Sequence record: PV636259.1
Strand: one strand, 5' to 3'
Origin: a phage
DNA length: 50,255 bases
Below, one piece after another: positions 281-36,443 of this stretch (positions are counted from its first letter, which is position 1; the number at the start of each line of letters is the position of its first letter). The notes beneath the pieces are model-generated. The model had not been told where the DNA came from. It did no database searches and was given only the letters and a program-made list of their open reading frames with translations. The translations under genes and the position numbers were made by a program.

Positions 281-1849
281 TTAACCCATCAGTCTAGGAT
301 TGATGAAAACAATATCATCAATGCGGCAAGTGTAGTTCATCTCTTCGAGCGTGATCAGCAGGCTGTCGATTCGCTCAGATACTTTCTGTTGACCGTTGAA
401 CGGCGTAACGTTCCGGCACTTTGCAACGATGCTATGAATAGGAGCGCGCCCTTTATTCTTCTTTGCGATCTCAGTGATAACATCAATCAGCTTACGAGAT
501 TCAGCCTCATCACCAGCATACCCGGCAGCGCTGGCAGACGACAGATAAGTCCTGGAAAGCTCATTAAAAATCATGATTGCTTCCTGCATCGTTTCAAGAT
601 CTATCTCACGATTGGAGCGGTTCGGAGATTCACCTTCCCAATTCTTTATCGTGTGAAGAACTGAAGCAATGCGCAATGCGTGCTTATCGAACTTACCGAG
701 ATGACCGCGTAGCATTGAGTGAGAGTATTTGCCACCTGCGGCGAAATCCGGCTCCATTGCCTGGCGCGCAAGGTTTAATTCACGCATAGCATTACGACTT
801 ACAGAAAGAACAACGTTTTCCTCCTTCATAATGTTGTGCACAAGTCGATAATATTTACTCACCAATCCTCGATCTACTTCCTTATACAGCGCATCACCAT
901 TTTCATCACAAAGAATACGAGTACCTAAAAGTGGTTCCTCACGAACTAAAAGGAAACGCTCAGATACGCCGATGCCTCGTTGGCCTGCGTCCATGATACC
1001 CTTGATTGTTTCATCCTGCGCAATAACGCAGATGGAACCGACCGGGCAAAGGGACAAGTTGTTATCCTGGTTGGAACGCGCTACCTCCATATGGTTTTTA
1101 TCCCACGCCTTAAGGATAAGCTCACTATTTGATTTCTTGTCTGAACCCCCATAAGTCAGGCCGAGCAATGTATTGATTGCTGTCGCCTCATCAGAGATTA
1201 CGGAGAAATGACCTTGAACAGCAGCTACCTTCGCAAGACCTTCAGGTGTAGGATCTGATACCGCGAAAACAATATCAGCCATCTTCTTGATCTTCTCTTC
1301 CAGTTTTTCTTTGTCTTCGTACAGCGCCGCCGTCGTGTTACCCTTCGGGTCGTTTTTAATTTCCTTCTCGACCTGACGTAGCTGACTGGTTAAGCGGATA
1401 CGCTCCTTTTTTCTCTCTTCGTTCAGTCGCTGAATTTCTGCACGCATAGGCGTAATCGCTGCGGAGTTAATCGCGGATTTACCTGTTGACGGTGGCTGGC
1501 TGATTACCATGTAAAGAGCGGTGGGTTGTTCTTCTCCGTGATATTGCACCCAAAACTTCCCGAGCATCGCGGCTGAGATGCACCCAATGAAATGAGCGTA
1601 CGCAGACGAAACAGGGAACTGTACAGACTCGGCCTTTGCTTTTGCATATTCGAATACCAGGTTATCGCCACCTAACGAAATCAGAGGGAACTTATCGTTG
1701 CCGCTATTGATATCGATCGGATCTTGCCAAAATGAAACTGAGTCACCATAGCTGTTTTCACGAATTGCGATTGCCACCGGATTAACTCCAGTGCTATTGG
1801 CGATCTCAATAATCTGTTGGTAATTCAGTTTTGGCTTAATATTAAACAT
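281..1849 (-). CDS. Large P-loop (Walker A-like PPSTGKS) protein, 522 aa; possible replication/recombination-associated NTPase
   Basis: Long ORF from the track; start moved to the ATG preceded by TAAGGAG (MFNIKPKL). Walker A-like motif and central K/E-rich coiled segment. Function not recognisable from sequence alone. Confidence 0.6.
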   Translation of the reverse strand: MFNIKPKLNYQQIIEIANSTGVNPVAIAIRENSYGDSVSFWQDPIDINSGNDKFPLISLGGDNLVFEYAKAKAESVQFPVSSAYAHFIGCISAAMLGKFWVQYHGEEQPTALYMVISQPPSTGKSAINSAAITPMRAEIQRLNEERKKERIRLTSQLRQVEKEIKNDPKGNTTAALYEDKEKLEEKIKKMADIVFAVSDPTPEGLAKVAAVQGHFSVISDEATAINTLLGLTYGGSDKKSNSELILKAWDKNHMEVARSNQDNNLSLCPVGSICVIAQDETIKGIMDAGQRGIGVSERFLLVREEPLLGTRILCDENGDALYKEVDRGLVSKYYRLVHNIMKEENVVLSVSRNAMRELNLARQAMEPDFAAGGKYSHSMLRGHLGKFDKHALRIASVLHTIKNWEGESPNRSNREIDLETMQEAIMIFNELSRTYLSSASAAGYAGDEAESRKLIDVITEIAKKNKGRAPIHSIVAKCRNVTPFNGQQKVSERIDSLLITLEEMNYTCRIDDIVFINPRLMG

Positions 1850-1903
1850 CACAATAAACTCCTTAGTTGACGGTGTAAATGATACACCGCCAATGGTACA
1901 CGC

Positions 1904-1921
1904 GTTTTGCAAAAAGTGCTA
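1904..1921 (-). promoter_or_regulatory. Operator/promoter motif copy (minus orientation; AATAGCACTTTTTGCAAAAC)
   Basis: Member of the TAGCA-N5-TGCTA family; followed on the minus strand by a hairpin and TAAGGAG RBS of the 281..1849 gene. Confidence 0.5.
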
Positions 1922-1925
1922 TTGG

Positions 1926-2342
1926 TTATAAGTATTTGGCCTCAAAGGTTGTGCCGTCAGCTATGCTAAAACCGATCTCTTCGCGAAATAATGTCCAACG
2001 GCAACCATCATCATCAAAAATATAACCAGCTACGCCGCCGAGAGCGCGACCGCTTTCCACTTGGTAACGCTTGCCAAGTTTGAATGATTTTTTCATCGGA
2101 TTTCGATGATCAAGTCCGGTGCACTTTAGCGTCTTTGTTTTCAACTCAGTGAACTTAGCGAAGAAGATTTCATCAGATCCGTGAATTTGTAATTCATCAT
2201 GCTTTTCAAGTTTTAAATACTTCCCGCATTTTAATTTTACTTCGCGAGTGCCATCGAAACGCTCTCGACCTTTGTATAGGTTGTTAACTTCAAATCCTGT
2301 GATTTTATCAGCGTAAGTACATTTCAGTTTGATTGATTTCAT
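1926..2342 (-). CDS. Hypothetical protein (138 aa)
   Basis: Track ORF; preceded (minus strand) by the ACCAATCAGGAG translation-initiation element. Confidence 0.55.
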   Translation of the reverse strand: MKSIKLKCTYADKITGFEVNNLYKGRERFDGTREVKLKCGKYLKLEKHDELQIHGSDEIFFAKFTELKTKTLKCTGLDHRNPMKKSFKLGKRYQVESGRALGGVAGYIFDDDGCRWTLFREEIGFSIADGTTFEAKYL

Positions 2343-2405
2343 CGCATTAACTCCTGATTGGTTATCTTGAATAAGGTCACTTTATCAAATGACCTTACGG
2401 CAATA

Positions 2406-2425
2406 TTAACAAATCGTGCTATTTA
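2406..2425 (-). promoter_or_regulatory. Operator/promoter motif copy (minus orientation; AATAGCACGATTTGTTAATA) overlapping the stop of 2423..2632
   Basis: TAGCA-N5-TGTTA palindrome followed by hairpin AAGGTCA...TGACCTT and the ACCAATCAGGAG leader. Confidence 0.5.
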
Positions 2426-2632
2426 CCAGGGAATATAATCGTCGTCGTCCTCATCAATATCATCGCCAGGTAACTCGAAGTTTGGATTATATTCGCTTTC
2501 TGCGTCCATATCCATATTCCCTAGCGCGTCATCAAGTGTGATTTCTTTATATGCAACCTTGATACACCATTCCGCACTAAGCCCGGCATCAAGAGCGGCA
2601 AAATAACGAGTCCAGAAATTATCCCGTTCCAT
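2423..2632 (-). CDS. Hypothetical acidic protein (69 aa; C-terminal DDIDEDDDDYIPW)
   Basis: Track ORF; start set to the ATG (second codon of the track ORF). Highly acidic C-terminus. Confidence 0.5.
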   Translation of the reverse strand: MERDNFWTRYFAALDAGLSAEWCIKVAYKEITLDDALGNMDMDAESEYNPNFELPGDDIDEDDDDYIPW

Positions 2633-2635
2633 CAA

Positions 2636-2860
2636 TTAACTCCATGAATTAATGTAAATTGAGTTAGCCTCAAGCGTAGCGCGCACATCAGCATCTGTTG
2701 CATTTACTAAGCGCGAGCCTGGCGTGCTGCCGATAACGTTATTACCGTTACGAGTCTTAGTTACCGTCATTGAAATAAAACCGGAAGACTTATCCATTTT
2801 GATAACTACACGGCCTTTCGCGTTCAGGTGCTTGATGATATTCTCAACTTTAATGCTCAT
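2636..2860 (-). CDS. Hypothetical protein (74 aa)
   Basis: Track ORF with AAGGAATTAAAAATG-type RBS on the minus strand. Confidence 0.5.
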   Translation of the reverse strand: MSIKVENIIKHLNAKGRVVIKMDKSSGFISMTVTKTRNGNNVIGSTPGSRLVNATDADVRATLEANSIYINSWS

Positions 2861-2919
2861 TTTTAATTCCTTTGTTTGTTTGGTGTGGGAGTAATATACC
2901 TTACTCCCTGCTGATTGTC

Positions 2920-2939
2920 TTTAGCTATTCGTGCTATCA
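2920..2939 (-). promoter_or_regulatory. Operator/promoter motif copy (minus orientation; TGATAGCACGAATAGCTAAAG)
   Basis: Motif then hairpin GGGAGTAAGG...TTACTCCC then RBS of the 2636..2860 gene. Confidence 0.5.
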
Positions 2940-3080
2940 GTACTCAGAAATTACTTTGCACTCTTTGATTGTGCCGCCTAGAACTACTTTCTGCATCATT
3001 GCTTTTTGATGGCTATCGTAAACGCGAACATTTTTTACGCTGTTAAATTTGCCAGTATAGAAAGTGTGAATATAAATCAT
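2937..3080 (-). CDS. Possible small protein (47 aa), translationally coupled (ATGA overlap with the 3077..3400 stop)
   Basis: Hand-translated MIYIHTFYTGKFNSVKNVRVYDSHQKAMMQKVVLGGTIKECKVISEY; below the track size cutoff; its stop TGA abuts the motif. Confidence 0.3.
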   Translation of the reverse strand: MIYIHTFYTGKFNSVKNVRVYDSHQKAMMQKVVLGGTIKECKVISEY

Positions 3081-3400
3081 TTTTTACCGTCCCAAGTTTG
3101 ATACGCCGTCACCAGGTTGATGCTATGATCGAACTCATCAATGCTTAGCGATCCGATTCGAACCAATTCTTTTTCATGCTTGATATCAATCATCCTGCTA
3201 TATGGATGACCTGGAACGTATTTGAACAGTCGCTTGCTGTCGGCAATGTCGGCATTGATCCCGTAGAATCTACCTACCGCCGCCTTCACGCGCTCCATGA
3301 TATTTTTTTCGTGAATTGCCGCCGCGTTATTCAGTGCCGCAACCGTGCTTGCGTTAATCTTCGGTGACTTCGTTGTGATTTTGTAAGTGTGGTTCATCAT
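3077..3400 (-). CDS. Hypothetical protein (107 aa)
   Basis: Track ORF; G-rich RBS (AAGGGGGG) before ATGATG. Confidence 0.55.
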   Translation of the reverse strand: MMNHTYKITTKSPKINASTVAALNNAAAIHEKNIMERVKAAVGRFYGINADIADSKRLFKYVPGHPYSRMIDIKHEKELVRIGSLSIDEFDHSINLVTAYQTWDGKK

Positions 3401-3414
3401 CCCCCCTTAACCAG

Positions 3415-3615
3415 TCAGGATAGTTTTCTCGCTTCATCAATGATAACAGGCTCGAGGCGCTCAAGTCGAACGCGGAACGTGTTCATAAATCCCTCGTTGT
3501 TCTTCAATAATTCGAAGGCATCCGTAGCTTCAATGGCGCTACTACCCATGTAAGCGATCACGCTCTTCTGAGTCTTGCGTGAGATCGCAACTACGCGGTA
3601 AATATTATCACTCAT
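3415..3615 (-). CDS. Hypothetical protein (66 aa)
   Basis: Track ORF 3415..3699 trimmed to the internal ATG preceded by GGAGG, which removes the overlap with 3608..3979. Confidence 0.45.
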   Translation of the reverse strand: MSDNIYRVVAISRKTQKSVIAYMGSSAIEATDAFELLKNNEGFMNTFRVRLERLEPVIIDEARKLS

Positions 3616-3979
3616 ACAATGCCTCCTTAACGCGATCTGCAATGCATGAGTTGACGGTGATTGAATAGTTAGCCACACCCCATAATGCAATATTGCCAAG
3701 CTCGGTCCGCATTGATGGGTTGTTAAGCTGGATTATTGTCTCTCCAGTATCATTATCAATGAAGCGAGACACGCCTAAATGGTCCATGGCGCGGGTTACT
3801 CGGTTCACGCACTCCATTGCATCACTTACGCCGTAATAAGCGCTTAGAGCGGCTCTCACTGCCTTCTCTTGCTTGTTGTAAATCTTTCGCGCAATGTTCT
3901 CGATCGCTACGTTCTCTTTCTCGTCAGTCTGGATTGCTGTGCTTGCTGAGAAGTCCAGGTCTACGAATTGTTTAAACAT
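3608..3979 (-). CDS. Hypothetical protein (123 aa)
   Basis: Track ORF; RBS GAGGTAATCACC before the ATG on the minus strand. Confidence 0.55.
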   Translation of the reverse strand: MFKQFVDLDFSASTAIQTDEKENVAIENIARKIYNKQEKAVRAALSAYYGVSDAMECVNRVTRAMDHLGVSRFIDNDTGETIIQLNNPSMRTELGNIALWGVANYSITVNSCIADRVKEALYE

Positions 3980-4035
3980 GGTGATTACCTCGTTTTCTGT
4001 TGATGGGAGAACTATAGCAGCCCTCCCGCATTTTC

Positions 4036-4054
4036 GTTTAGCAGAAAGTGCTAT
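4036..4054 (-). promoter_or_regulatory. Operator/promoter motif copy (minus orientation; AATAGCACTTTCTGCTAAAC) with downstream TATAGT and CATCAACAG leader
   Basis: Palindrome TAGCA-N5-TGCTA, then TATAGTTCTCCCATCAACAGAAAACGAGG, then the ATG of 3608..3979. Confidence 0.55.
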
Positions 4055-4240
4055 TTAGAATTTTACATCTTCAACAAGCTCAACCATTTTGTAACCAAGT
4101 CGATAGGAGTCCCCGAACAACAATAACCCCATAAATTCATCTTTGGTTATTGACTCCTTGCCAACAGTTTTAAGCTCTCCGTTGTGAATCACAGTATCGC
4201 CGATCTTGATTTCTGATTTGTGCACTAATTTCGTTTTCAT
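4055..4240 (-). CDS. Hypothetical small protein (61 aa)
   Basis: Track ORF. Confidence 0.45.
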   Translation of the reverse strand: MKTKLVHKSEIKIGDTVIHNGELKTVGKESITKDEFMGLLLFGDSYRLGYKMVELVEDVKF

Positions 4241-4255
4241 TTGTTAGCCTGTTAA

Positions 4256-4456
4256 TTAAAAGAATGCTACATAGTTTGCAATACCTTTAGCGTCGTCGTT
4301 AGGCATTGCCTTGACAGCCAAGTCATAACCAGCCTCTACCTTCTTCTTTGCTGACTCTTCGTTGTATCCCCAAATAACCAGGATTTTAACTACGTTTTCT
4401 TTGTTCAGGACTTTAAGTTCTTTAGTGATGCGACGTGCCATTTTGTTTTTCCTCAA
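4256..4456 (-). CDS. Hypothetical small basic protein (66 aa)
   Basis: Track ORF; preceded by a motif cassette with CATAAT -10 and CTCATCGAAACGAG leader. Confidence 0.5.
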   Translation of the reverse strand: MRKNKMARRITKELKVLNKENVVKILVIWGYNEESAKKKVEAGYDLAVKAMPNDDAKGIANYVAFF

Positions 4457-4498
4457 TCTCGTTTCGATGAGGTAATTATGCCAAATCGCACCGATCGA

Positions 4499-4519
4499 GT
4501 TTTAACAAAAAGTGCTATT
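4499..4519 (-). promoter_or_regulatory. Operator/promoter motif copy (minus orientation; GAATAGCACTTTTTGTTAAAAC) overlapping the stop of 4502..5206
   Basis: Full-consensus motif read as reverse complement; followed by CATAAT and the conserved leader. Confidence 0.55.
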
Positions 4520-5206
4520 CGCGATTGCTTTGAAAAATCCCCTTGGCGACAGAGATCGTATCAGTTTTGTTTTGGCAGACTTGCCGCCTAGCTTGCTGTG
4601 CTGTGCAGAGTACCCGTCAGGCAGTCTTACAGGTTTTCTTTCAGGCATGACAAAATCGTCAGAGGTCCACAGACAAGTTTTCTTCGGGTAAGCATCGCGC
4701 GGCGCAATATACATCGGGAACCAGGGGTGTGCGTCATTCTCTGGAAGATAGCCACCATACTCCCAGGGATTGAAGGAGTGATTTGGTTTTCTCCACGCAG
4801 AAGACAGGACGCTTACCGGATTCTCAATGATGTAAGTCACGCCCAGGCTATCGCCAATGTTCGCAGCAATCCGGGCGGTGGCAACAGCCTTCTCCTGGAA
4901 TAACGGATCGCGCTCACGCTTTCTGGCGAAGTGAGCAGCACCACTAACAGCCAGGTCAGTGCACGGCGGGAAGGCCATAATGAAATCAGGCTTGCCATAC
5001 ACGCCAGCGATAGCATCACGCTCGAACGCTGCGTCAATGAACACGTTCACATACTCAATGTTCGGATGCTCCACTCTGGCATTGTACTTTGCGTAATCTC
5101 CGTGATCGGCTCCGTCAAAGTTGAAGCACATCACCTTATGACCTTGCTTTGCCAGTTCATGACCAGCAAGCCCGGAACCGTCGAATAGTGACCAAATTAA
5201 TTTCAT
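4502..5206 (-). CDS. Short SAM-methyltransferase-like protein resembling the catalytic core of DNA cytosine-5 methyltransferases (234 aa)
   Basis: Order and spacing of FDGSG (motif I-like), FPPC (motif IV-like, Pro-Cys) and IENPV (motif VI-like ENV) match C5-MTase architecture; no target-recognition domain or motifs IX/X evident. First gene of the leftward early operon. Confidence 0.5.
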   Translation of the reverse strand: MKLIWSLFDGSGLAGHELAKQGHKVMCFNFDGADHGDYAKYNARVEHPNIEYVNVFIDAAFERDAIAGVYGKPDFIMAFPPCTDLAVSGAAHFARKRERDPLFQEKAVATARIAANIGDSLGVTYIIENPVSVLSSAWRKPNHSFNPWEYGGYLPENDAHPWFPMYIAPRDAYPKKTCLWTSDDFVMPERKPVRLPDGYSAQHSKLGGKSAKTKLIRSLSPRGFFKAIANSTFC

Positions 5207-5268
5207 CGTGACTTCCTCTTCTGATTGGTTTATGAGCTGGACTATACACGATCTACCCGACCGAGTCG

Positions 5269-5286
5269 TTAGCGAAAAATGCTATT
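5269..5286 (-). promoter_or_regulatory. Operator/promoter motif copy (minus orientation; AATAGCATTTTTCGCTAA) upstream of the MTase-like gene
   Basis: Followed on the minus strand by TATAGT and ACCAATCAGAAGAGGAAG RBS region, then the ATG at 5206. Confidence 0.5.
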
Positions 5287-5471
5287 CCAATAATTGCTCA
5301 TTATTCCATCAATACTGGAATATCTGGAATAATTACGATCATGATTGATCTCGAATGATGAAATGTGATTGTTGCATGGTGTGCAACAGTTGGTTGATTT
5401 GTTGCTTAGATTGCAATGATTGTGAGAGGGTGGATTTGGTGTTACCCGGTTCGCCTGGTGGTCATCTCCAT

Positions 5472-5490
5472 TTTTAGCAAAACGTGCTAT
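5472..5490 (-). promoter_or_regulatory. Operator/promoter motif copy (minus orientation; ATAGCACGTTTTGCTAAAA)
   Basis: Second copy in the control region, about 200 bp upstream of the first in the minus direction. Confidence 0.45.
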
Positions 5491-5893
5491 CGATTACACT
5501 TTAACTTGTCACGATTGTAATATTTGTCTAGAATCGCACTTGTGACAAAATTACGCACTGTGACGCCCCACAATAGACATATGGATATATGTATATATAT
5601 AATATATATAGTGTTTTTTTATTTATATATATAGATAATTATATTGTAATAGTTGTGTATAGCCGTCTTACATTGTCTAGCGTACTGTTGGCATATTTCT
5701 ATCTGCATGTTTATATATACAGTACTTTTTTGAGAGTCATATATTTCTATGTGTACTCTAGACAGCTAGACAAATGTTACACAGCTTAAAATTGGCTCGC
5801 AGGCATTGACGGCCCTGCATTGCGCTGTCACAATGGCAATTGTTGACATGTTATGACACCATTTACACATCAATAGACAAATGAGGATGGATT

Positions 5894-6409
5894 ATGAGCA
5901 ATACCAATCAGGAATTAAAAATCACCGATATGATTCGACTAACCTGCGATGCAATGTACCGCGACAAAGGCATGAATGAGTTCTCTTTCGTAGCTGATGA
6001 TATGGCCCTCGAAGCAGCGCGATTCTACTTTCGGGGCCAGGAAGTAAGCGATAGCGTTCTTGAATCTGCCGCTGCCGGATGGGTGGACCAGAATCAGGGT
6101 GAGGTGGAGAAGCGATTCAAGTCTGCTTTCATTACGCCAATCATTACCAGGCACTTTTGCAAGTATGGCAAGGTGGCAAAGGTGAAGGTGGGCCGGAATG
6201 ACGCCGCAATCACAATGATAACCGTTATCGTTACAGACGAAGAGGTTCCGGTGAAGAAACGCCGCAGCCGGAAAAAAGTTAGCCTGGCCGACTGCCTGGA
6301 TTCGTTTGATGTTGATGTTAGCAAACTATCCGATAGCGAGTTAATGGTTCGTGATGTGAATGAGATCGTGCGCCAGATGAAAGCACATATTGAAAAGTGT
6401 GGACTGTAA
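5894..6409 (+). CDS. Hypothetical protein (171 aa), first gene of the rightward early operon
   Basis: Track ORF; RBS GAGGATGG before ATG. Confidence 0.6.
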   Translation: MSNTNQELKITDMIRLTCDAMYRDKGMNEFSFVADDMALEAARFYFRGQEVSDSVLESAAAGWVDQNQGEVEKRFKSAFITPIITRHFCKYGKVAKVKVGRNDAAITMITVIVTDEEVPVKKRRSRKKVSLADCLDSFDVDVSKLSDSELMVRDVNEIVRQMKAHIEKCGL

Positions 6410-6415
6410 GGAGAG

Positions 6416-6682
6416 ATGAGTATGAGCAAGATTAAGCATGACGCCCTGAAAGGTATCTTGATGCGACTAAACCCAGGCGAAGCATTCCAGCTTAACCCCG
6501 AGACATTCGGGTTCGTCGGCTTCTATAGACTTGGCCTACAGATGAGTTCGCCAGCCGATGAGCTGGTCCGGTATGTGCGAAAGCAGTTCGGCGTCGAGAT
6601 GATTAGTCTCGGAAAGGTGCAAGGCATCCAGACATTCATCTTTAAGCCAAATGAGATTCGTTGCTTCACGCTGATGAAATAG
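6416..6682 (+). CDS. Hypothetical protein (88 aa)
   Basis: Track ORF; its stop TAG is the first three bases of a motif copy. Confidence 0.55.
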   Translation: MSMSKIKHDALKGILMRLNPGEAFQLNPETFGFVGFYRLGLQMSSPADELVRYVRKQFGVEMISLGKVQGIQTFIFKPNEIRCFTLMK

Positions 6683-6698
6683 CACTTTTTGTTAAAAC
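6680..6698 (+). promoter_or_regulatory. Operator/promoter motif copy (TAGCACTTTTTGTTAAAAC) + hairpin + TATTAT + CATCGACAC leader
   Basis: Read directly; the stop codon of 6416..6682 is embedded in the motif. Confidence 0.6.
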
Positions 6699-6754
6699 CC
6701 GACCGAGCGGATCGGGTATTATCTTCTCATCGACACGATACAGAGGAAGCGAAG

Positions 6755-6949
6755 ATGGAAACGCAAATTGACGTAGTGGTTGTTCAGCGCGACTCAACTC
6801 ATGAAAAGGGTCTGTTCAAGAAAGGAACCGAAATCACGATCGACCTTGAGGATATGGTTGCATATCACTCTGGCCTTACCTGGAACGTGGTGCGCGTAGG
6901 CAGCGACTACAAACTCAAAGGCTTTAACACTTACTTTGCGGAGGTTTAA
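6755..6949 (+). CDS. Hypothetical protein (64 aa)
   Basis: Track ORF 6689..6949 trimmed to the ATG preceded by GAGGAAG; the upstream part overlaps the regulatory cassette. Confidence 0.5.
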   Translation: METQIDVVVVQRDSTHEKGLFKKGTEITIDLEDMVAYHSGLTWNVVRVGSDYKLKGFNTYFAEV

Positions 6950-6951
6950 TC

Positions 6952-7419
6952 ATGGCGACAATTACCGTATTCCTGGCTAAAGATGAGATTGATGGCGAAA
7001 TGTCATTCTTCGCGTTTGAGCACAAAACCGGATCGCACTGGCACATGTACAGTCACTACACGGTTATTGATATCAACTCATACCGCGCAGGCTCACTTAC
7101 TGAAAAGCTGGGTTGCTTCATTGGAGCTATCAAGGCGAACAATGGCTGCGATTGTGAAGATGAGCAAGAGCGTCGCATGTGCGATATGATTAACCCGGTC
7201 TATCTTGAGTCTTTCGATCTTGATTCTGATGTGACCATTAAGGTGAGAAAGTCGGGTGAGTTGTTGCCAGGGATGCGTGTGCTGACTGGTTACTCGGGCC
7301 GTAAGGTGTGGCGCACTGTATCCAAGATTCGCCAGCGTTCGGCAACATGCTATAGCGTATTCTTTAATGATGGCTGGAATGAGGTTGCTGGCAGTAACGT
7401 GAAGTATCTTACCAAATAG
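6952..7419 (+). CDS. Hypothetical protein (155 aa)
   Basis: Track ORF; stop TAG embedded in the next motif. Confidence 0.55.
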   Translation: MATITVFLAKDEIDGEMSFFAFEHKTGSHWHMYSHYTVIDINSYRAGSLTEKLGCFIGAIKANNGCDCEDEQERRMCDMINPVYLESFDLDSDVTIKVRKSGELLPGMRVLTGYSGRKVWRTVSKIRQRSATCYSVFFNDGWNEVAGSNVKYLTK

Positions 7420-7435
7420 CACGAATTGTTAAAAC
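7417..7435 (+). promoter_or_regulatory. Operator/promoter motif copy (TAGCACGAATTGTTAAAAC) + TGCTATAGT extended -10 + CCATCGAAACG leader
   Basis: Read directly. Confidence 0.6.
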
Positions 7436-7493
7436 AGGATCGTGGTATCTTGCTATAGTTACCCCATCGAAACGCTTCTTGGCAAACCCAAAA

Positions 7494-7600
7494 GAAGGAA
7501 GCGGCAAACGTAGAACGGAGCCGCGAAAACCTCGAAGCAAAATTGACCTGGAAAAACCCATCAGGAAGGAAGCGGCAAACGTAGACCGGAGTCGCGAAAC
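7494..7600 (+). repeat. Two tandem copies of a ~36-bp element GAAGGAAGCGGCAAACGTAGA(A/C)CGGAG(C/T)CGCGAAAAC (7494..7530 and 7565..7600) in a 220-bp untranslated leader
   Basis: Read directly; each copy can fold GCGGC...GCCGC/GTCGC and carries an AGGAAG Shine-Dalgarno-like sequence with no ORF. Confidence 0.6.
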
Positions 7601-7638
7601 CCCAGGTTAAAAATTACACACCAATCAGAGGATTCACC

Positions 7639-7869
7639 ATGTCAATCATCAAGAACCAACAAGCCATCGACTCAACCAGCCACAACTGCTTTGCTATTTT
7701 CATCACTCGCGACAACAAGCGATTTGCTGTCAGGGCTGTACCGGGTGGATACAAAACCTATATGGAAAATAACGGAAAATGGGTATGCTGCGACAACCTG
7801 GCCAACTTCCTGGTATGGAACGCAGACCTGCAAGGATTCGACGATATCAGCACTTTAATTGAGGAATAA
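7639..7869 (+). CDS. Hypothetical protein (76 aa)
   Basis: Track ORF; preceded by ACACCAATCAGAGGA initiation element. Confidence 0.55.
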   Translation: MSIIKNQQAIDSTSHNCFAIFITRDNKRFAVRAVPGGYKTYMENNGKWVCCDNLANFLVWNADLQGFDDISTLIEE

Positions 7870-7875
7870 ATAATC

Positions 7876-8103
7876 ATGCCACGTTACAGCAACCTAACCA
7901 AACTAATCCGCGTCAACGGGCACATGATCCCGTCTAAATCTACTCACTGCGCGAAAGGCGCAAAGCACGGATTATATTTCAAGTGGCGCGGTCAATGGAA
8001 CTTCACGGCGGTGAGCAATTTTTACATGCGCGTTCCTGGTGACGATCCGCAATCGGTAGTAGAAAACTCAATCGGCGACAACAAGATCGAGGTGCTAAAA
8101 TGA
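7876..8103 (+). CDS. Hypothetical protein (75 aa)
   Basis: Track ORF. Confidence 0.5.
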   Translation: MPRYSNLTKLIRVNGHMIPSKSTHCAKGAKHGLYFKWRGQWNFTAVSNFYMRVPGDDPQSVVENSIGDNKIEVLK

Positions 8104-8206
8104 ACTTTAATACAGTAGCGCTATGGTCTGCCGTCTGGTTCTTCTGCATGGGTCACGTTATGGTCGGCATCGTTGTAATGCTTCTCCTGTGTGCGGGGGC
8201 GTTCGA

Positions 8207-8380
8207 ATGATGCGTATATTTATTTGCATGATGGCGTCGGTCGCCCTGGCTATCCTGGTAGTGTCCGGCTGTGGCGAGGTCAAAGAGCGATGCCATGAAA
8301 CCGGGAACCAGGTTACTACATTCGTGATGGTTGGCAATGTTTTACTACCAATCACATCAAATGAAATCACTTGCGAATAG
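8207..8380 (+). CDS. Small putative lipoprotein (57 aa; signal peptide with VSGC lipobox)
   Basis: MMRIFICMMASVALAILVVSGCGEV...; start set to the ATG after GGGGGCG. Stop TAG embedded in the next motif. Confidence 0.45.
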   Translation: MMRIFICMMASVALAILVVSGCGEVKERCHETGNQVTTFVMVGNVLLPITSNEITCE

Positions 8381-8396
8381 CACTTTTTGTTAAAAC
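8378..8396 (+). promoter_or_regulatory. Operator/promoter motif copy (TAGCACTTTTTGTTAAAAC) + hairpin enclosing GATATAGT + CATCGACAACG leader
   Basis: Read directly. Confidence 0.6.
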
Positions 8397-8451
8397 GCGA
8401 TCATGTGGTTGCGATATAGTAACCACATCGACAACGAACGAGGACGAGAAC

Positions 8452-8940
8452 ATGAAAATTAAATTACTTTGCACTGGCGGTTACAAAGGCTTTACTCGCG
8501 ACCTAGAAGCCGATCCTATTATCGTTGACGCCGTGAAGTGCGATGATAGCATTGGCGGCTACAGAGTCAAGGTCGATGACCTGGTTAAAGCTGGCGTGTA
8601 CGATCTTGATTACGGCCTATCGGTTAGTCCGGCATTTGGCCCGGCTGACTTCAACGAGAAGGACGGAACGATGTTCTTTTTTGAATGGGAAGTCCAGGCA
8701 AACATCAAGCCGCGCAAGGTTCGACTTCTCAACAATGGCGGGTATCCTATGCGCCCTGGTTATGAGAATCGCACGTTCCCGGTTATTGTTGACTTTGAAG
8801 AAATCACTAACAACTTGGTATACGTTAGCCATGAGCACCTGCGAGCCGTTGGATTCGTTGGCGGTATGCATAAAGAAGCACTATGCTTCGTTCGCGAGGA
8901 AATGCACGGTTACTATTCTGAGTGTGAGTTAGTTTACTAA
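8452..8940 (+). CDS. Hypothetical protein (162 aa)
   Basis: Track ORF 8371..8940 trimmed to the ATG after GAGGACGAG. Confidence 0.55.
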   Translation: MKIKLLCTGGYKGFTRDLEADPIIVDAVKCDDSIGGYRVKVDDLVKAGVYDLDYGLSVSPAFGPADFNEKDGTMFFFEWEVQANIKPRKVRLLNNGGYPMRPGYENRTFPVIVDFEEITNNLVYVSHEHLRAVGFVGGMHKEALCFVREEMHGYYSECELVY

Positions 8941-8955
8941 GCACGAATTGTTAAA
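8938..8955 (+). promoter_or_regulatory. Operator/promoter motif copy (variant TAAGCACGAATTGTTAAA) + hairpin + TGGTACAAT
   Basis: Read directly; stop TAA of 8452..8940 embedded. Confidence 0.5.
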
Positions 8956-9774: not shown

Positions 9775-10008
9775 ATGATTATCGTCAACAAAGAAACTGG
9801 AGAGGTAATGGAGAATTGCATCATCATAGAAGAGTCGCCAAAGTCAAAGCACAAGCATGGTACTTACAGAAAGGTCACTTGCAAGGCTCCGGGGTGTGGT
9901 AATACATACGATGCAAAAGTGTCCGATCTGAATCGCGGATGGGGATTAACTTGCAGCAAGTCATGTGCCGCCGTCGTTCGTGAATTAAAGAAGAAAGGGA
10001 ATATATAA
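9775..10008 (+). CDS. Small Cys-rich (zinc-binding-like) protein (77 aa)
   Basis: Track ORF; CKAPGCGN...CSKSC spacing suggests a Zn ribbon. Confidence 0.5.
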   Translation: MIIVNKETGEVMENCIIIEESPKSKHKHGTYRKVTCKAPGCGNTYDAKVSDLNRGWGLTCSKSCAAVVRELKKKGNI

Positions 10009-10214
10009 TGGCTACACGACTCACTCAATGGCAGATTTACGACAAGGCCTCACGCCTTCGTGAATCACTTCGCGGACTGACGTCAAATGATCGCATGGAA
10101 ATCATCGGTCATGCATTGCACGAACTAACGCCGCATGACGTAACCTATCATTCTTGCGGCAATAAATTTTGGAACGTAACATTCGAGGTGAATGAAGATG
10201 AGCAAAACTCATAA
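10008..10214 (+). CDS. Hypothetical protein (68 aa)
   Basis: Track ORF; ATG overlaps the upstream stop (TAATG). Confidence 0.5.
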   Translation: MATRLTQWQIYDKASRLRESLRGLTSNDRMEIIGHALHELTPHDVTYHSCGNKFWNVTFEVNEDEQNS

Positions 10215-11126: not shown

Positions 11127-11162
11127 CGGGGAATCGGCTCTGAACGGTTCCCCTTTCTTTTG
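11127..11162 (+). terminator. Rho-independent terminator (GGGGAA...TTCCCC + T-run)
   Basis: Hairpin followed by TTTCTTTTGG directly after the 10482..11120 stop. Confidence 0.6.
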
Positions 11163-11490: not shown

Positions 11491-11544
11491 CTATCAAGGG
11501 GAATGCGCTATGATTCCCCTACACCAAAAAACGAGGGAACACTC

Positions 11545-11991
11545 ATGAAACATTTGATTTGCATTGACACACCTAACAATGAATACACCCTATACGAAAT
11601 TGGAATGTTCAAAGGCCACTACATGACAGCAAGCATTTATGATGCGCGTCGAGGCGATGGCGATCTGATTATTACGTCAAAAGACGTTAATCCGTACATT
11701 ATGCAGAATCTTGGCAATAATGAATATATGGCTTACGGCTGCAACGCGGTGTACAAACATGTCAAGATCCGTAAGCGTATTGTTCGAGCGTTTAAGAAAA
11801 TCGCCATGAAGCACTGGAAGATGAGCAAGAAGGAGGCTGGGCGCTGGGCGCGTAACGTTGCTGATTCATACTTCTATCGTAACGGTGAGTCGTGCTGCTT
11901 CCTGATCGATGAAATGATGGAAAATTATAGCGGCACATTCTGCCAAAGTGATTTTGACGCTTGGGCTGACTACGAGGTAGATTGCTGGTAA
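11545..11991 (+). CDS. Hypothetical protein (148 aa)
   Basis: Track ORF 11503..11991 trimmed to the ATG after GAGGGAACAC. Confidence 0.55.
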   Translation: MKHLICIDTPNNEYTLYEIGMFKGHYMTASIYDARRGDGDLIITSKDVNPYIMQNLGNNEYMAYGCNAVYKHVKIRKRIVRAFKKIAMKHWKMSKKEAGRWARNVADSYFYRNGESCCFLIDEMMENYSGTFCQSDFDAWADYEVDCW

Positions 11992-12073: not shown

Positions 12074-12277
12074 ATGAAAACTATTACCGGAATGAGCAAC
12101 GAAACGAGAACGCAGATCGTTAACATGCTAATCGGCATGGCTGACGATATTCAGAATAGCCAGGTCGTTATTGATTCATGCAATCAGACTCGTGAGAGTA
12201 AATTTGAATCATCCGGCTACAAAATTGTTGAAGAAGAATTAACCATCAAAATCATTCGCGTACAGGAGAAAGCATAA
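12074..12277 (+). CDS. Hypothetical protein (67 aa)
   Basis: Track ORF; preceded by ACCAATCAGAGGAATCACT initiation element. Confidence 0.5.
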   Translation: MKTITGMSNETRTQIVNMLIGMADDIQNSQVVIDSCNQTRESKFESSGYKIVEEELTIKIIRVQEKA

Positions 12278-15276: not shown

Positions 15277-15300
15277 AACCCGCTTCGGCGGGTTTTTTTA
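15277..15300 (+). terminator. Rho-independent terminator (AACCCGCTTCGGCGGGTT + T7) closing the rightward early operon
   Basis: GC hairpin with GCTTCGGC tetraloop-like centre followed by TTTTTTT. Confidence 0.7.
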
Positions 15301-35453: not shown

Positions 35454-35482
35454 AAAGGGGCCGATTGGCCCCTTTTTTTAAT
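35454..35482. terminator. Bidirectional rho-independent terminator (GGGGCCGATTGGCCCC flanked by A- and T-runs)
   Basis: Sits between convergent J (plus) and receptor-binding (minus) genes. Confidence 0.7.
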
Positions 35483-36443
35483 ACATGTTTGGAGTGAAAG
35501 GAATTGGCATTGAAATGTTTATATTGAAGGGAAATTGAGCGCCGCTCTGAGTAGAATAGTTACCCACCCTTGTTCCGGGTGCGCTTCTCACGTTACCGCC
35601 GCTCATGCAAACTCCCTTGTATCGAATGTTATTATATCCACCCGTAACTCTGCATATCGTACCTGTTCTCAGTATTGGGAAAAATCCACCGCACCACTGC
35701 CAACCATCATTTATCGCCATAGTCCCGCCAAGAACGAATGGGCGTCTAACGCTTGAGAAAACGATCTGACCAGCAGGGTTACTCATAGTTATTCCTAGCC
35801 CAGGAGGTGGTGGAGTGTTATTAAATATTACGAGTTGCACGTATACGCTAGCGCCAACGTCATCAATCCCGTTATAGTTTGCATCCCTGCACCATATTGT
35901 ATTGCCGTCAGATTCAAGTGTTACGTTTGGATTATCCCACATACCGAAAGGAACGCCCTGTACTGGCAACTGAGCCTGACCGTTAACCTGAATCCCCCCA
36001 ACAAATGCAGCGCTCATCAATCTGGCGTTATTCGGTATAGCTGCGAAGTTCGTTGAATCGTTAACAAGTATCCCCTGATTTCCAGCTTGAGCGGGGAGGA
36101 TTTCGTAGCAGTTTCCATAAAATCTCATCCTCCTTCCACCGTGCCCGTTAAAATTACCTACCGTTATTCGTCCGGTTGAATCATTTACCTTCTGAAAACT
36201 AGTCAAATAATACACCTCCGGGATGTAATCCATATCGTCTATGTAGATAGCCTGAGATGGAAGGCAAAAAGCAGTAGACCCTGGACTCATTTGCAAACCA
36301 AAATCAAACACCGATCCAGATGAATCAACCCCGTCAGCCTGTATGGGTCCGCACCATGACGGTGCGCGAAGACCCGAAGTTATCTCCATTGCCGGGCGAC
36401 CGTCGTTTAGGTTTATATATATTCCTTGTCCCATAATTACCAC
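35478..36443 (-). CDS. Putative receptor-binding protein (321 aa)
   Basis: Gly/Asn-rich beta-type composition; encoded with a Cor-like lipoprotein gene, opposite to the tail operon. Positional inference. Confidence 0.5.
   Translation of the reverse strand: MVIMGQGIYINLNDGRPAMEITSGLRAPSWCGPIQADGVDSSGSVFDFGLQMSPGSTAFCLPSQAIYIDDMDYIPEVYYLTSFQKVNDSTGRITVGNFNGHGGRRMRFYGNCYEILPAQAGNQGILVNDSTNFAAIPNNARLMSAAFVGGIQVNGQAQLPVQGVPFGMWDNPNVTLESDGNTIWCRDANYNGIDDVGASVYVQLVIFNNTPPPPGLGITMSNPAGQIVFSSVRRPFVLGGTMAINDGWQWCGGFFPILRTGTICRVTGGYNNIRYKGVCMSGGNVRSAPGTRVGNYSTQSGAQFPFNINISMPIPFTPNMY

Follow-up and report, generated by a model that had tools for sequence, protein, structure and literature searches.

The 50,255-nt stretch of phage DNA in sequence record PV636259.1, referred to here at its full length as the window, carries at positions 7474-7612 two diverged copies of a leader RNA module of about 69 nt. 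The source phage is T1-like (Drexlerviridae, Tunavirus), and the copies lie in the gap between a 155-amino-acid (aa) gene (6952-7419) and a 76-aa gene. The module is best explained, tentatively, as a portable accessory element whose folded scaffold would show GGA-rich segments resembling ribosome-binding sites to a factor acting in trans. Its fold and its modular, accessory nature are well supported by comparison of the available copies; the mechanism, the transcription start and action at the RNA rather than the DNA level are what we infer.

A tandem direct repeat of about 36 bp had been described in this gap by the initial annotation, and a pair of repeats is indeed found where it was placed. 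The 37-mer GAAGGAAGCGGCAAACGTAGAACGGAGCCGCGAAAAC at 7494-7530 recurs as GAAGGAAGCGGCAAACGTAGACCGGAGTCGCGAAACC at 7565-7601, with 34 of 37 positions identical. With up to 3 mismatches allowed the 37-mer occurs exactly twice in the window, and 100 shuffled sequences contain no match. The second copy ends in GAAACC, not in GAAAAC as had been written. The arrangement is not head to tail, as 34 nt separate the two 37-mers; the start-to-start spacing is 71 nt, and similarity extends to 51 nt at 82% identity. The 37-mer is the best-conserved core of a larger unit of about 69 nt (~69-71 nt), with an outer stem, P1, that had gone unnoticed. A covariance model of the unit (R1), applied to the whole window with filters off, finds exactly the two units listed in Table 1, and the next best match scores 11.5 bits.

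It should be noted that the gap is not devoid of open reading frames (ORFs), as had been stated. A TTG ORF (7479-7610, 43 aa) and a minus-strand ORF (7409-7561) exist mechanically, and three relatives have public annotations of the stretch. These coding readings were all rejected. The 71-nt spacing is not a multiple of 3, so that the two units fall in different reading frames; aligned module copies differ from each other by single-base insertions and deletions; and the three annotations disagree on both strand and frame. Thus the gap is non-coding. The cores of the two copies in the source phage are 85% identical, while between Tunavirus copy 1 and the second copy of Tlsvirus-like phages the core between the P1 arms is 92-96% identical. 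Thus the two copies do not represent a fresh duplication, and the core is strongly constrained.

Thirteen distinct module copies, from about nine phages or contigs, were aligned with MAFFT without structural input. The layout consists of P1 (6-9 bp), a joining strand, a 5-bp stem P2 (GCGGY/RCCGC) with a 14-nt loop of consensus AAACGUAGNNCGGA, and a closing strand GNAAM. The joining strand reads (C/A)AAACCC-A-W-H-AG-(G)-M-AGGAAG, and a short helix, P1a, may arise from pairing of its CC with the GG. Two more pairs (P2b) may form within the P2 loop; these are invariant and hence uninformative. The unpaired segments AAACCC..GGAAG, the P2 loop and GNAAAC are nearly invariant in the 13 copies. P1 sequences are wholly different between copies but their pairing is kept, with at least four unrelated versions of the arms (GCUUCGGGG/CCUCGAAGC, ACUUGGG/CCCAGGU, GCCGGGG/CCUCGGC and GCCAGG/CCUGGC). 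A pseudo-symmetry is apparent, in that each P2 strand has GGA before it and (G)AAAC after it. The first copy in Tlsvirus-like sequences lacks P1 and has P1a lengthened to CCCC/GGGG.

The GCGGC...GCCGC hairpin of the initial annotation is present and covaries. Changes in P2 are C-G to U-A, C-G to G-U, and two of G-C to G-U. Over the whole fold, standard pairs occupy 90.5% of the pair cells, compared with 23-43% after the 3′ partners have been shifted by 1-3 columns. Changes on both sides are found in 8 of the 18 pairs, the double-change cells number 30 (11.7 ± 2.7 in shuffles), and the observed covariation score was reached by none of 500 column shuffles. The same helices are predicted independently by RNAalifold, copies from four phages display the same architecture when folded one sequence at a time, and in a fold of the full leader the two units form independently of each other. 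Assignment to the plus strand, which is probable, rests mostly on the orientation of the genes and the direction of a 21-nt repeat upstream; among the wobble pairs there are 14 G-U cells versus 8 A-C cells. As a separate observation, the P1 arms of copy 2 contain CCTGG (7547-7551) and CCAGG (7602-7606), both Dcm (CCWGG) sites, and second copies in Tlsvirus-like phages have the same two words with the arms swapped.

BLAST and pattern scans recovered carriers in three genera. Two copies each are found in Tunavirus (the source phage, ECO104 4-5-2, Shfl1, ULIM2 and two Logan contigs), one copy each in Webervirus (F20, VAC2 and Solomon), and two copies each in Tlsvirus or Tlsvirus-like carriers (Salmonella phage FSL SP-126 and one human-gut contig). 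Most close relatives have a gap of 78 nt with AGAT in place of the ~146 nt that bear the modules; examples of such 0-copy leaders are those of SH2, phi2457T, JMPW1 and many metagenomic contigs. In contig L201 a 76-aa protein identical to that of the source phage is encoded behind a 0-copy leader, which suggests that gain or loss of the module is recent. Absence from relatives had been named beforehand as an outcome that would speak against a regulatory element. The repeats are in fact absent from most close relatives, but the module recurs with covariation in distant genera, and this marks it as an accessory module rather than an artefact.

The module is always found directly after a 21-nt repeat and a -10-like box, starting 8-25 nt after a conserved CATCGAAA box. 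The genes that follow differ. In Tunavirus the module precedes the T1p75-like 76-aa gene, which in most relatives follows a 0-copy leader. In F20 (and VAC2) the gene behind it is T1p05-like and belongs to the other early arm, F20's own T1p75 homologue being ~47 kb away along the record. Different genes again follow it in SP-126 and the gut contig. From these loci the module appears to be an accessory cassette that is shared by three genera and is not tied to one gene.

Searches beyond the known carriers added no members. A covariance model found none in ~1 Mb (120 loci) of other Drexlerviridae sequence from IMG/VR, and exact-pattern scans with the loop and the core in IMG/VR, JGI/ENA metagenomes and GTDB genomes returned only the known phages and the gut contig, L044. 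The remaining pattern matches were set aside as chance, since they are without flanking stems; those in GTDB are in unrelated soil and marine metagenome-assembled genomes. Likewise a 21-bit model match in L059, L064 and L071 was rejected, as it lies inside a 186-aa ORF and had been preselected by the search pattern. In BLAST searches 5,426 E. coli genomes gave no match to the module, and 72,556 plasmids gave only 25-nt chance matches in Erythrobacteraceae. No description of the module was found in the literature searched.

Two loci met in these comparisons are of separate interest. At the same junction in ADB-2 (L214, record 5250-6500) there is no module cassette; an extra 86-aa ORF is present, with the repeat-promoter block again before the T1p75-like gene. 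The repeat-bounded junctions thus seem to be sites of cargo exchange. The early region of the gut contig (UERY01001152), at one end of which the module is found, is Tlsvirus-like, and the contig's segment 11200-11440 is 98.8% identical to the Salmonella phage-plasmid SSU5, so that it represents a mosaic phage or a chimeric assembly.

The 21-nt repeat that lies directly upstream of the module is the Drexlerviridae intergenic direct repeat, whose consensus was published for phage TLS and which was noted also in T1, Rtp and Rogue1 (PMC11447400). Its role was listed as an open question by the authors of the TLS re-annotation, and the module does not appear in their paper (PMC11447400). The repeats point along transcription and number ~16-21 per genome, compared with one or two modules in a few phages. 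In the window 16 matches are found by regular expression (Table 1), or about 17 copies when a variant near 8942 is counted, and in most of them the TAG stop of the preceding gene forms the start. The copy before the module includes the stop of the 155-aa gene (7417-7419), which the initial annotation had placed correctly, as it had the ATG at 7639.

Behind most copies of the repeat there is an inverted repeat with arms of 6-8 bp. The arms vary from copy to copy yet remain complementary, and they enclose TGnTAnnnT, a box of the extended -10 type; CATCGAMAAC, a Shine-Dalgarno sequence and ATG come after it. Ahead of the module, the box at 7451-7459 is a candidate sigma-70 extended -10 promoter, and transcription is predicted to start near A7466. 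In one public record these repeat/promoter blocks are annotated as terminators. The 55-nt promoter block 7420-7474 matches 669 phage records, while the module-bearing part matches only a handful. At the repeat sites the distance from TTGYTA to the hexamer is ~22 nt, too long for a classic -35/-10 pair.

In normal units the start codon is found ~76 nt after the 21-nt repeat. Among 344 repeat units, those of the window and of the 120 IMG/VR loci, 309 have a repeat-to-start distance of 40-100 nt; before the 76-aa gene this distance is 223 nt, and the leader is as unusually long as had been claimed. Most of the other long leaders inspected hold short ORFs missed by the gene finder. A few, e.g. those of L085 and of the 5207-5490 region of the source phage, may be genuine long non-coding leaders, and none of the long cases inspected contains the module.

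Part of the module resembles a ribosome-binding site. GGAAG, 5′ of P2, is invariant in all 13 copies, and there is almost no variation in the CGGA at the 3′ end of the loop. The loop of copy 1, AAACGTAGAACGGAG, is identical at 14 of 15 positions to real early-gene leaders of related phages (AAACGAAGAACGGAG-N6-ATG). As would be expected of a 5′ stabiliser or standby site, no ATG, GTG or TTG is found within 14 nt after GGAAG (7497-7501 and 7568-7572), and likewise there is no start codon within 14 nt after CGGAG (7516-7520 and 7587-7591). In CsrA-binding RNAs two or more GGA motifs are spaced 10-63 nt apart and lie in loops or unpaired stretches; in the module GGA is present at alignment columns 35-37 and 55-57, invariant save in one copy.

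The preferred explanation, a binding platform, can be outlined as follows. The module would be part of the 5′ leader of an early transcription unit, probably transcribed from the extended -10 box behind the 21-nt repeat. Each copy is predicted to fold alone into P1, the short P1a, and P2 with its 14-nt loop. This scaffold would fix near-invariant single-stranded segments, namely two GGA purine tracts (5′ of P2 and at the 3′ end of the loop) and three AAAC strands, and so provide a platform for a factor that recognises GGA or RNA resembling a ribosome-binding site. Candidate factors are the 30S subunit with S1, for which the module could be a standby site or one that protects the mRNA, a CsrA-type protein, or a phage translational regulator. 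Binding may tune the stability or translation of whatever early genes follow, or may titrate the factor. The effect would not depend on the downstream gene and would scale with a copy number of 0, 1 or 2.

Two known systems are closest to such a platform. Certain 5′ mRNA stabilisers, e.g. the STAB-SD of cryIIIA, rely on a Shine-Dalgarno-like sequence without a start codon. The module is similar in having Shine-Dalgarno-like purine tracts near the 5′ end with no start codon, and its effect would likewise be portable and independent of the gene, but elements of this type function without a conserved multi-helix scaffold or long invariant unpaired tracts. RNAs of the CsrB/RsmZ type have GGA motifs in hairpin loops and adjacent linkers. 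Each module unit has two invariant GGA, ~20 nt apart, one in a linker and one in a hairpin loop, and some copies read CAGGAAG, a CsrB-like heptamer. However, there are only 2-3 GGA per unit and the loop GGA is partly paired in the predicted fold. Compared with CsrA-bound leaders, conservation goes far beyond the CsrA consensus, and the Shine-Dalgarno sequence of the downstream gene is outside the module.

Several observations weigh against this explanation. The likeness of the loop to leaders is statistically weak, exceeding 96-98% of shuffled controls (p ~0.02-0.04), and the AAACCC..GGAAG strand is no more leader-like than shuffles. GGAAG is a poor match to the anti-Shine-Dalgarno sequence; the real sites of the source phage are mostly of the GAGGA type, and AGGAAG is a weaker Shine-Dalgarno match. 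The earlier proposal of a structured regulatory RNA with decoy ribosome sites holds as regards a structured non-coding leader with an invariant GGAAG and a leader-like loop; action through decoy sites is a candidate mechanism. Loops of the F20 type have GGAA instead of GGAG, and the change is compensated in the P2 stem; since the G-to-A change in the loop is coupled with a C-to-U change in its partner, it is pairing and not a Shine-Dalgarno letter that is conserved there. The many invariant unpaired bases (AAACCC, AAACGUAG) exceed the needs of a simple ribosome or CsrA site, which suggests that a pocket for a specific ligand or protein fits at least as well. The thermodynamic signal is modest (z of -1.7 for the full leader and +0.3 to -2.9 for single units). 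The sample comprises 13 related sequences only, and for this reason independent compensatory events are few. The plus strand pairs at 90.5% and the minus strand at 87.7%, a small preference, and the transcription start near 7466 is a prediction.

A translational operator had also been suggested. The real Shine-Dalgarno sequence of the 76-aa gene is AGAGGA at 7627-7632. It is largely unpaired, ~19-20 nt past the P1 end of copy 2 (7607), as is most of the native leader in the full-leader fold, and it is masked by neither unit. Thus no Shine-Dalgarno-masking platform was found, and there is no evidence for an operator of this kind.

A role in trans and a role as an aptamer are the serious rivals. 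The RNA may itself be the product, i.e., an abundant early decoy or sponge, possibly processed from the leader, whose target would be a host RNA-binding regulator or a defence nuclease that attacks RNA, which it would titrate. We regard this as unlikely, although of the alternatives it survives best. It would account for an accessory element that is patchy over three genera, variable in copy number and not linked to the gene that follows, with a position immediately after what is probably a strong early promoter (itself predicted) and a core strongly conserved across genera. No phage partner was found either. ORFs present in module-positive Shfl1 yet not in module-negative SH2 are 10008-10214, 11503-11991, 12074-12277 and 35478-36443(-); only the last (321 aa) is also present in F20, at 30% identity and adjoining tail-fibre genes there. 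Comparison of Shfl1, SH2 and F20, and of SP-126 on partial loci only, gave no credible RNA-binding partner protein that co-occurs with the module. Against a decoy, E. coli chromosomes, plasmids and GTDB genomes contain no likeness for it to mimic, it is not tRNA-like (ARAGORN found no tRNA or tmRNA in the window), and no 3′ end-forming signal for a discrete small RNA is present in 6500-8500.

Pseudo-ToxI RNAs and RNA anti-CRISPRs are comparable to such a decoy, being short repeated non-coding units of variable copy number at an early accessory site of a lytic phage, and the 36-nt core with its 35-nt gap superficially recalls the period of a repeat and spacer. The likeness ends there. Type III antitoxin or pseudo-ToxI repeats are near-identical, ~34-45 nt long and head to tail; the cores here, judged by a repeat search and direct reading, are 71 nt apart, and each copy keeps a P1 of its own, unrelated to the other. 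No adjacent toxin gene and no host or plasmid antitoxin repeat was found (5,426 E. coli genomes, 72,556 plasmids), and the neighbouring genes encode small proteins of unknown function. As for a CRISPR mini-array, no E. coli genome is matched, the segment between the cores, or “spacer”, holds conserved joining strands and covarying P1 arms, and versions with a single copy exist.

Also unlikely is a riboswitch-like aptamer that would respond to a small molecule or ion by altering early-gene expression, and would be tandem in some of the carriers. Covarying helices around highly conserved unpaired nucleotides, which is the generic appearance of a riboswitch, are found in the module, as is the 5′ leader position. 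Tandem arrangement is known in several riboswitch classes, and small aptamers occur in tandem in the glycine, guanidine-II mini-ykkC (two hairpins with conserved loops) and NAD+-I classes; the module is like them in having two similar structured units per leader with covarying stems and invariant loops. However, riboswitches normally travel with a gene class, and here the downstream genes are T1p75-like, T1p05-like or others, most close relatives are without the module, and single copies exist. No expression platform was detected: the Shine-Dalgarno sequence is unpaired, and no intrinsic terminator is found on either strand in 6500-8500, the plus strand having GAAAAC after P2 and not the U tract of a terminator. 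Rfam gave no match in the whole window at gathering thresholds, and at E ≤10 over 7400-7700 gave only IsrR (12 bits, gathering threshold 52), which falls on the promoter block and not on the repeats. Resemblances to the sarcin-ricin loop (GACCGGAG), the c-di-GMP-I GGCAAACC motif, glnA/glutamine, preQ1-I, the kink-turn, lambda boxA and CRISPR repeats were dropped, since either the shared letters vary among the copies or the relevant Rfam models give no match.

The other explanations are less likely. It is very improbable that the module is a nascent-RNA element acting on the transcribing RNA polymerase, for processive antitermination or against Rho, in the manner of HK022 put. The put RNAs are cis-acting antiterminator RNAs that act without a phage protein partner, and the module shares with them a size of ~70 nt per unit, a multi-stem structure, two units near an early promoter, just downstream of the inferred start, and a function that would be portable. 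No sequence or architectural match to put is apparent. Relatives without the module express the same genes, and no boxA/boxB-like element is conserved across the copies; the boxA-like CGCUUCUU of the source phage is not conserved in Shfl1. A transcript would have to run for 3.5 kb, past three additional repeat/promoter units, before it met the first convincing plus-strand terminator (11128-11153), which gives little reason to invoke antitermination.

Decaying, functionless debris of a duplicated leader or ribosome-binding sequence has an equally slight chance of being correct: the loop resembles ordinary leaders, most relatives are without the element and P1 of copy 1 has two mismatches, but the core stays 92-96% identical across genera while P1 arms are fully replaced with pairing kept, compensatory changes are found in two helices, and the architecture persists in three lineages at different loci. 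Least probable is action as DNA or through the minus strand, e.g. as a hairpin for single-strand initiation or as a terminator of antisense transcription, for which there are a P2 hairpin followed by a U-rich tract on the minus strand (UUCCUUCUUUU) and the modest strand preference of the wobble pairs; the genes and flanking repeat point to the plus strand, neither strand has a terminator in 6500-8500, G-U cells exceed A-C cells, and the constant place between -10 box and ribosome-binding site fits an RNA leader.

Table 1. Coordinates of the module copies, their parts and the associated features in the window.
Feature	Position	Strand	Remarks
Module copy 1	7474..7541	+	R1 84.5 bits, E 8.6e-23
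Copy 1, P1	7474-7482 with 7530-7538	+	7/9 pairs, two mismatches
Copy 1, joining strand	7483-7500	+	AAACCC, GGAAG
Copy 1, P2	7501-7505 with 7520-7524	+	
Copy 1, loop	7506-7519	+	AAACGTAGAACGGA
Copy 1, GAAAA strand	7525-7529	+	
Module copy 2	7544..7612	+	R1 84 bits, E 1.2e-22
Copy 2, P1	7546-7551 with 7602-7607	+	ACCTGG with CCAGGT
Copy 2, joining strand	7552-7571	+	
Copy 2, P2	7572-7576 with 7591-7595	+	GCGGC/GTCGC, one G-U
Copy 2, loop	7577-7590	+	AAACGTAGACCGGA
Copy 2, GAAACC strand	7596-7601	+	
21-nt Drexlerviridae intergenic direct repeat	7414..7434	+	aaATAGCACnnnTTGnTAAAA; consensus matched at every specified position
Imperfect inverted repeat GGTATCT/AGTTACC	7444..7463	+	surrounds extended -10-like TGcTATAGT, 7451-7459
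Native short leader	7613..7641	+	ACCAATCAGAGGATTCACC; common to relatives without module; compared with SH2 and contig L201
76-aa early gene	7639..7869	+	T1p75-like, phrog_11449, unknown function; not module-specific
21-nt repeat copies	6679, 7416, 8377, 9664, 11471, 11991, 13488, 41342, 42884, 45393	+	
21-nt repeat copies	25810, 22044, 5490, 5285, 4518, 2422	-	

The region 6900-8200 matches 60 phage records at 85-94% identity (megablast), all of them T1-like Escherichia and Shigella phages, and the window has roughly the length of a single genome of such a phage. Minus-strand genes occupy 281-5206, and small plus-strand genes extend from ~5589 to the terminase gene; the module-bearing gap is in this plus-strand arm. 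The 155-aa gene, like the 76-aa gene, matches a PHROG family of unknown function. The next gene, of 75 aa (7876-8103), corresponds to Pfam DUF7274 in precomputed matches for related contigs, and no function is known for the other genes checked between 5894 and 11117. Strong intrinsic-terminator-like hairpins are present in the arm at 11128-11153 and 15277-15294, and the latter, directly ahead of the terminase genes, looks like a terminator whichever strand is read.

A divergent non-coding region (5207-5588) separates the two early arms. Two copies of the repeat (5490 and 5285) lie there in the 284-nt leader of the minus-strand 234-aa gene (4502-5206), a layout kept in L135 and L151, and the best classic sigma-70 matches of the plus-strand arm are at 5574-5603 and 5506-5534 (plus strand). 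Among 292 leaders (window and L076-L195), 20 distinct ones carry a second recurrent motif, (A)ACCAATCAG, which is fused directly to the Shine-Dalgarno sequence and includes the native leader at 7620-7632; in 16 of these 20 the motif is located 18-20 nt upstream of the ATG. The commonest leader class in repeat units is CATCGAAACGAA(A/G)..ACGGAG.

Should the module prove to be no more than a stabiliser or standby site, it would be a neat but unremarkable case. It is also conceivable, though improbable, that the RNA is a phage-borne aptamer or decoy made at once from the early promoter that captures a host factor, such as a CsrA-like regulator, an RNA-targeting defence nuclease or a signalling molecule. 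In that case it would be an RNA-only cassette for host takeover or counter-defence that moves between T1-like leaders, and would add to the repertoire of lytic coliphages. T1-like phages are common therapeutic and laboratory phages whose early gene control is almost uncharted. In a few of them a compact RNA supported by covariation, matched by no Rfam family and by nothing in the literature searched, lies directly behind a copy of the 21-nt repeat, and its natural state of 0, 1 or 2 copies in otherwise near-identical phages provides a ready genetic contrast for the study of early leaders.

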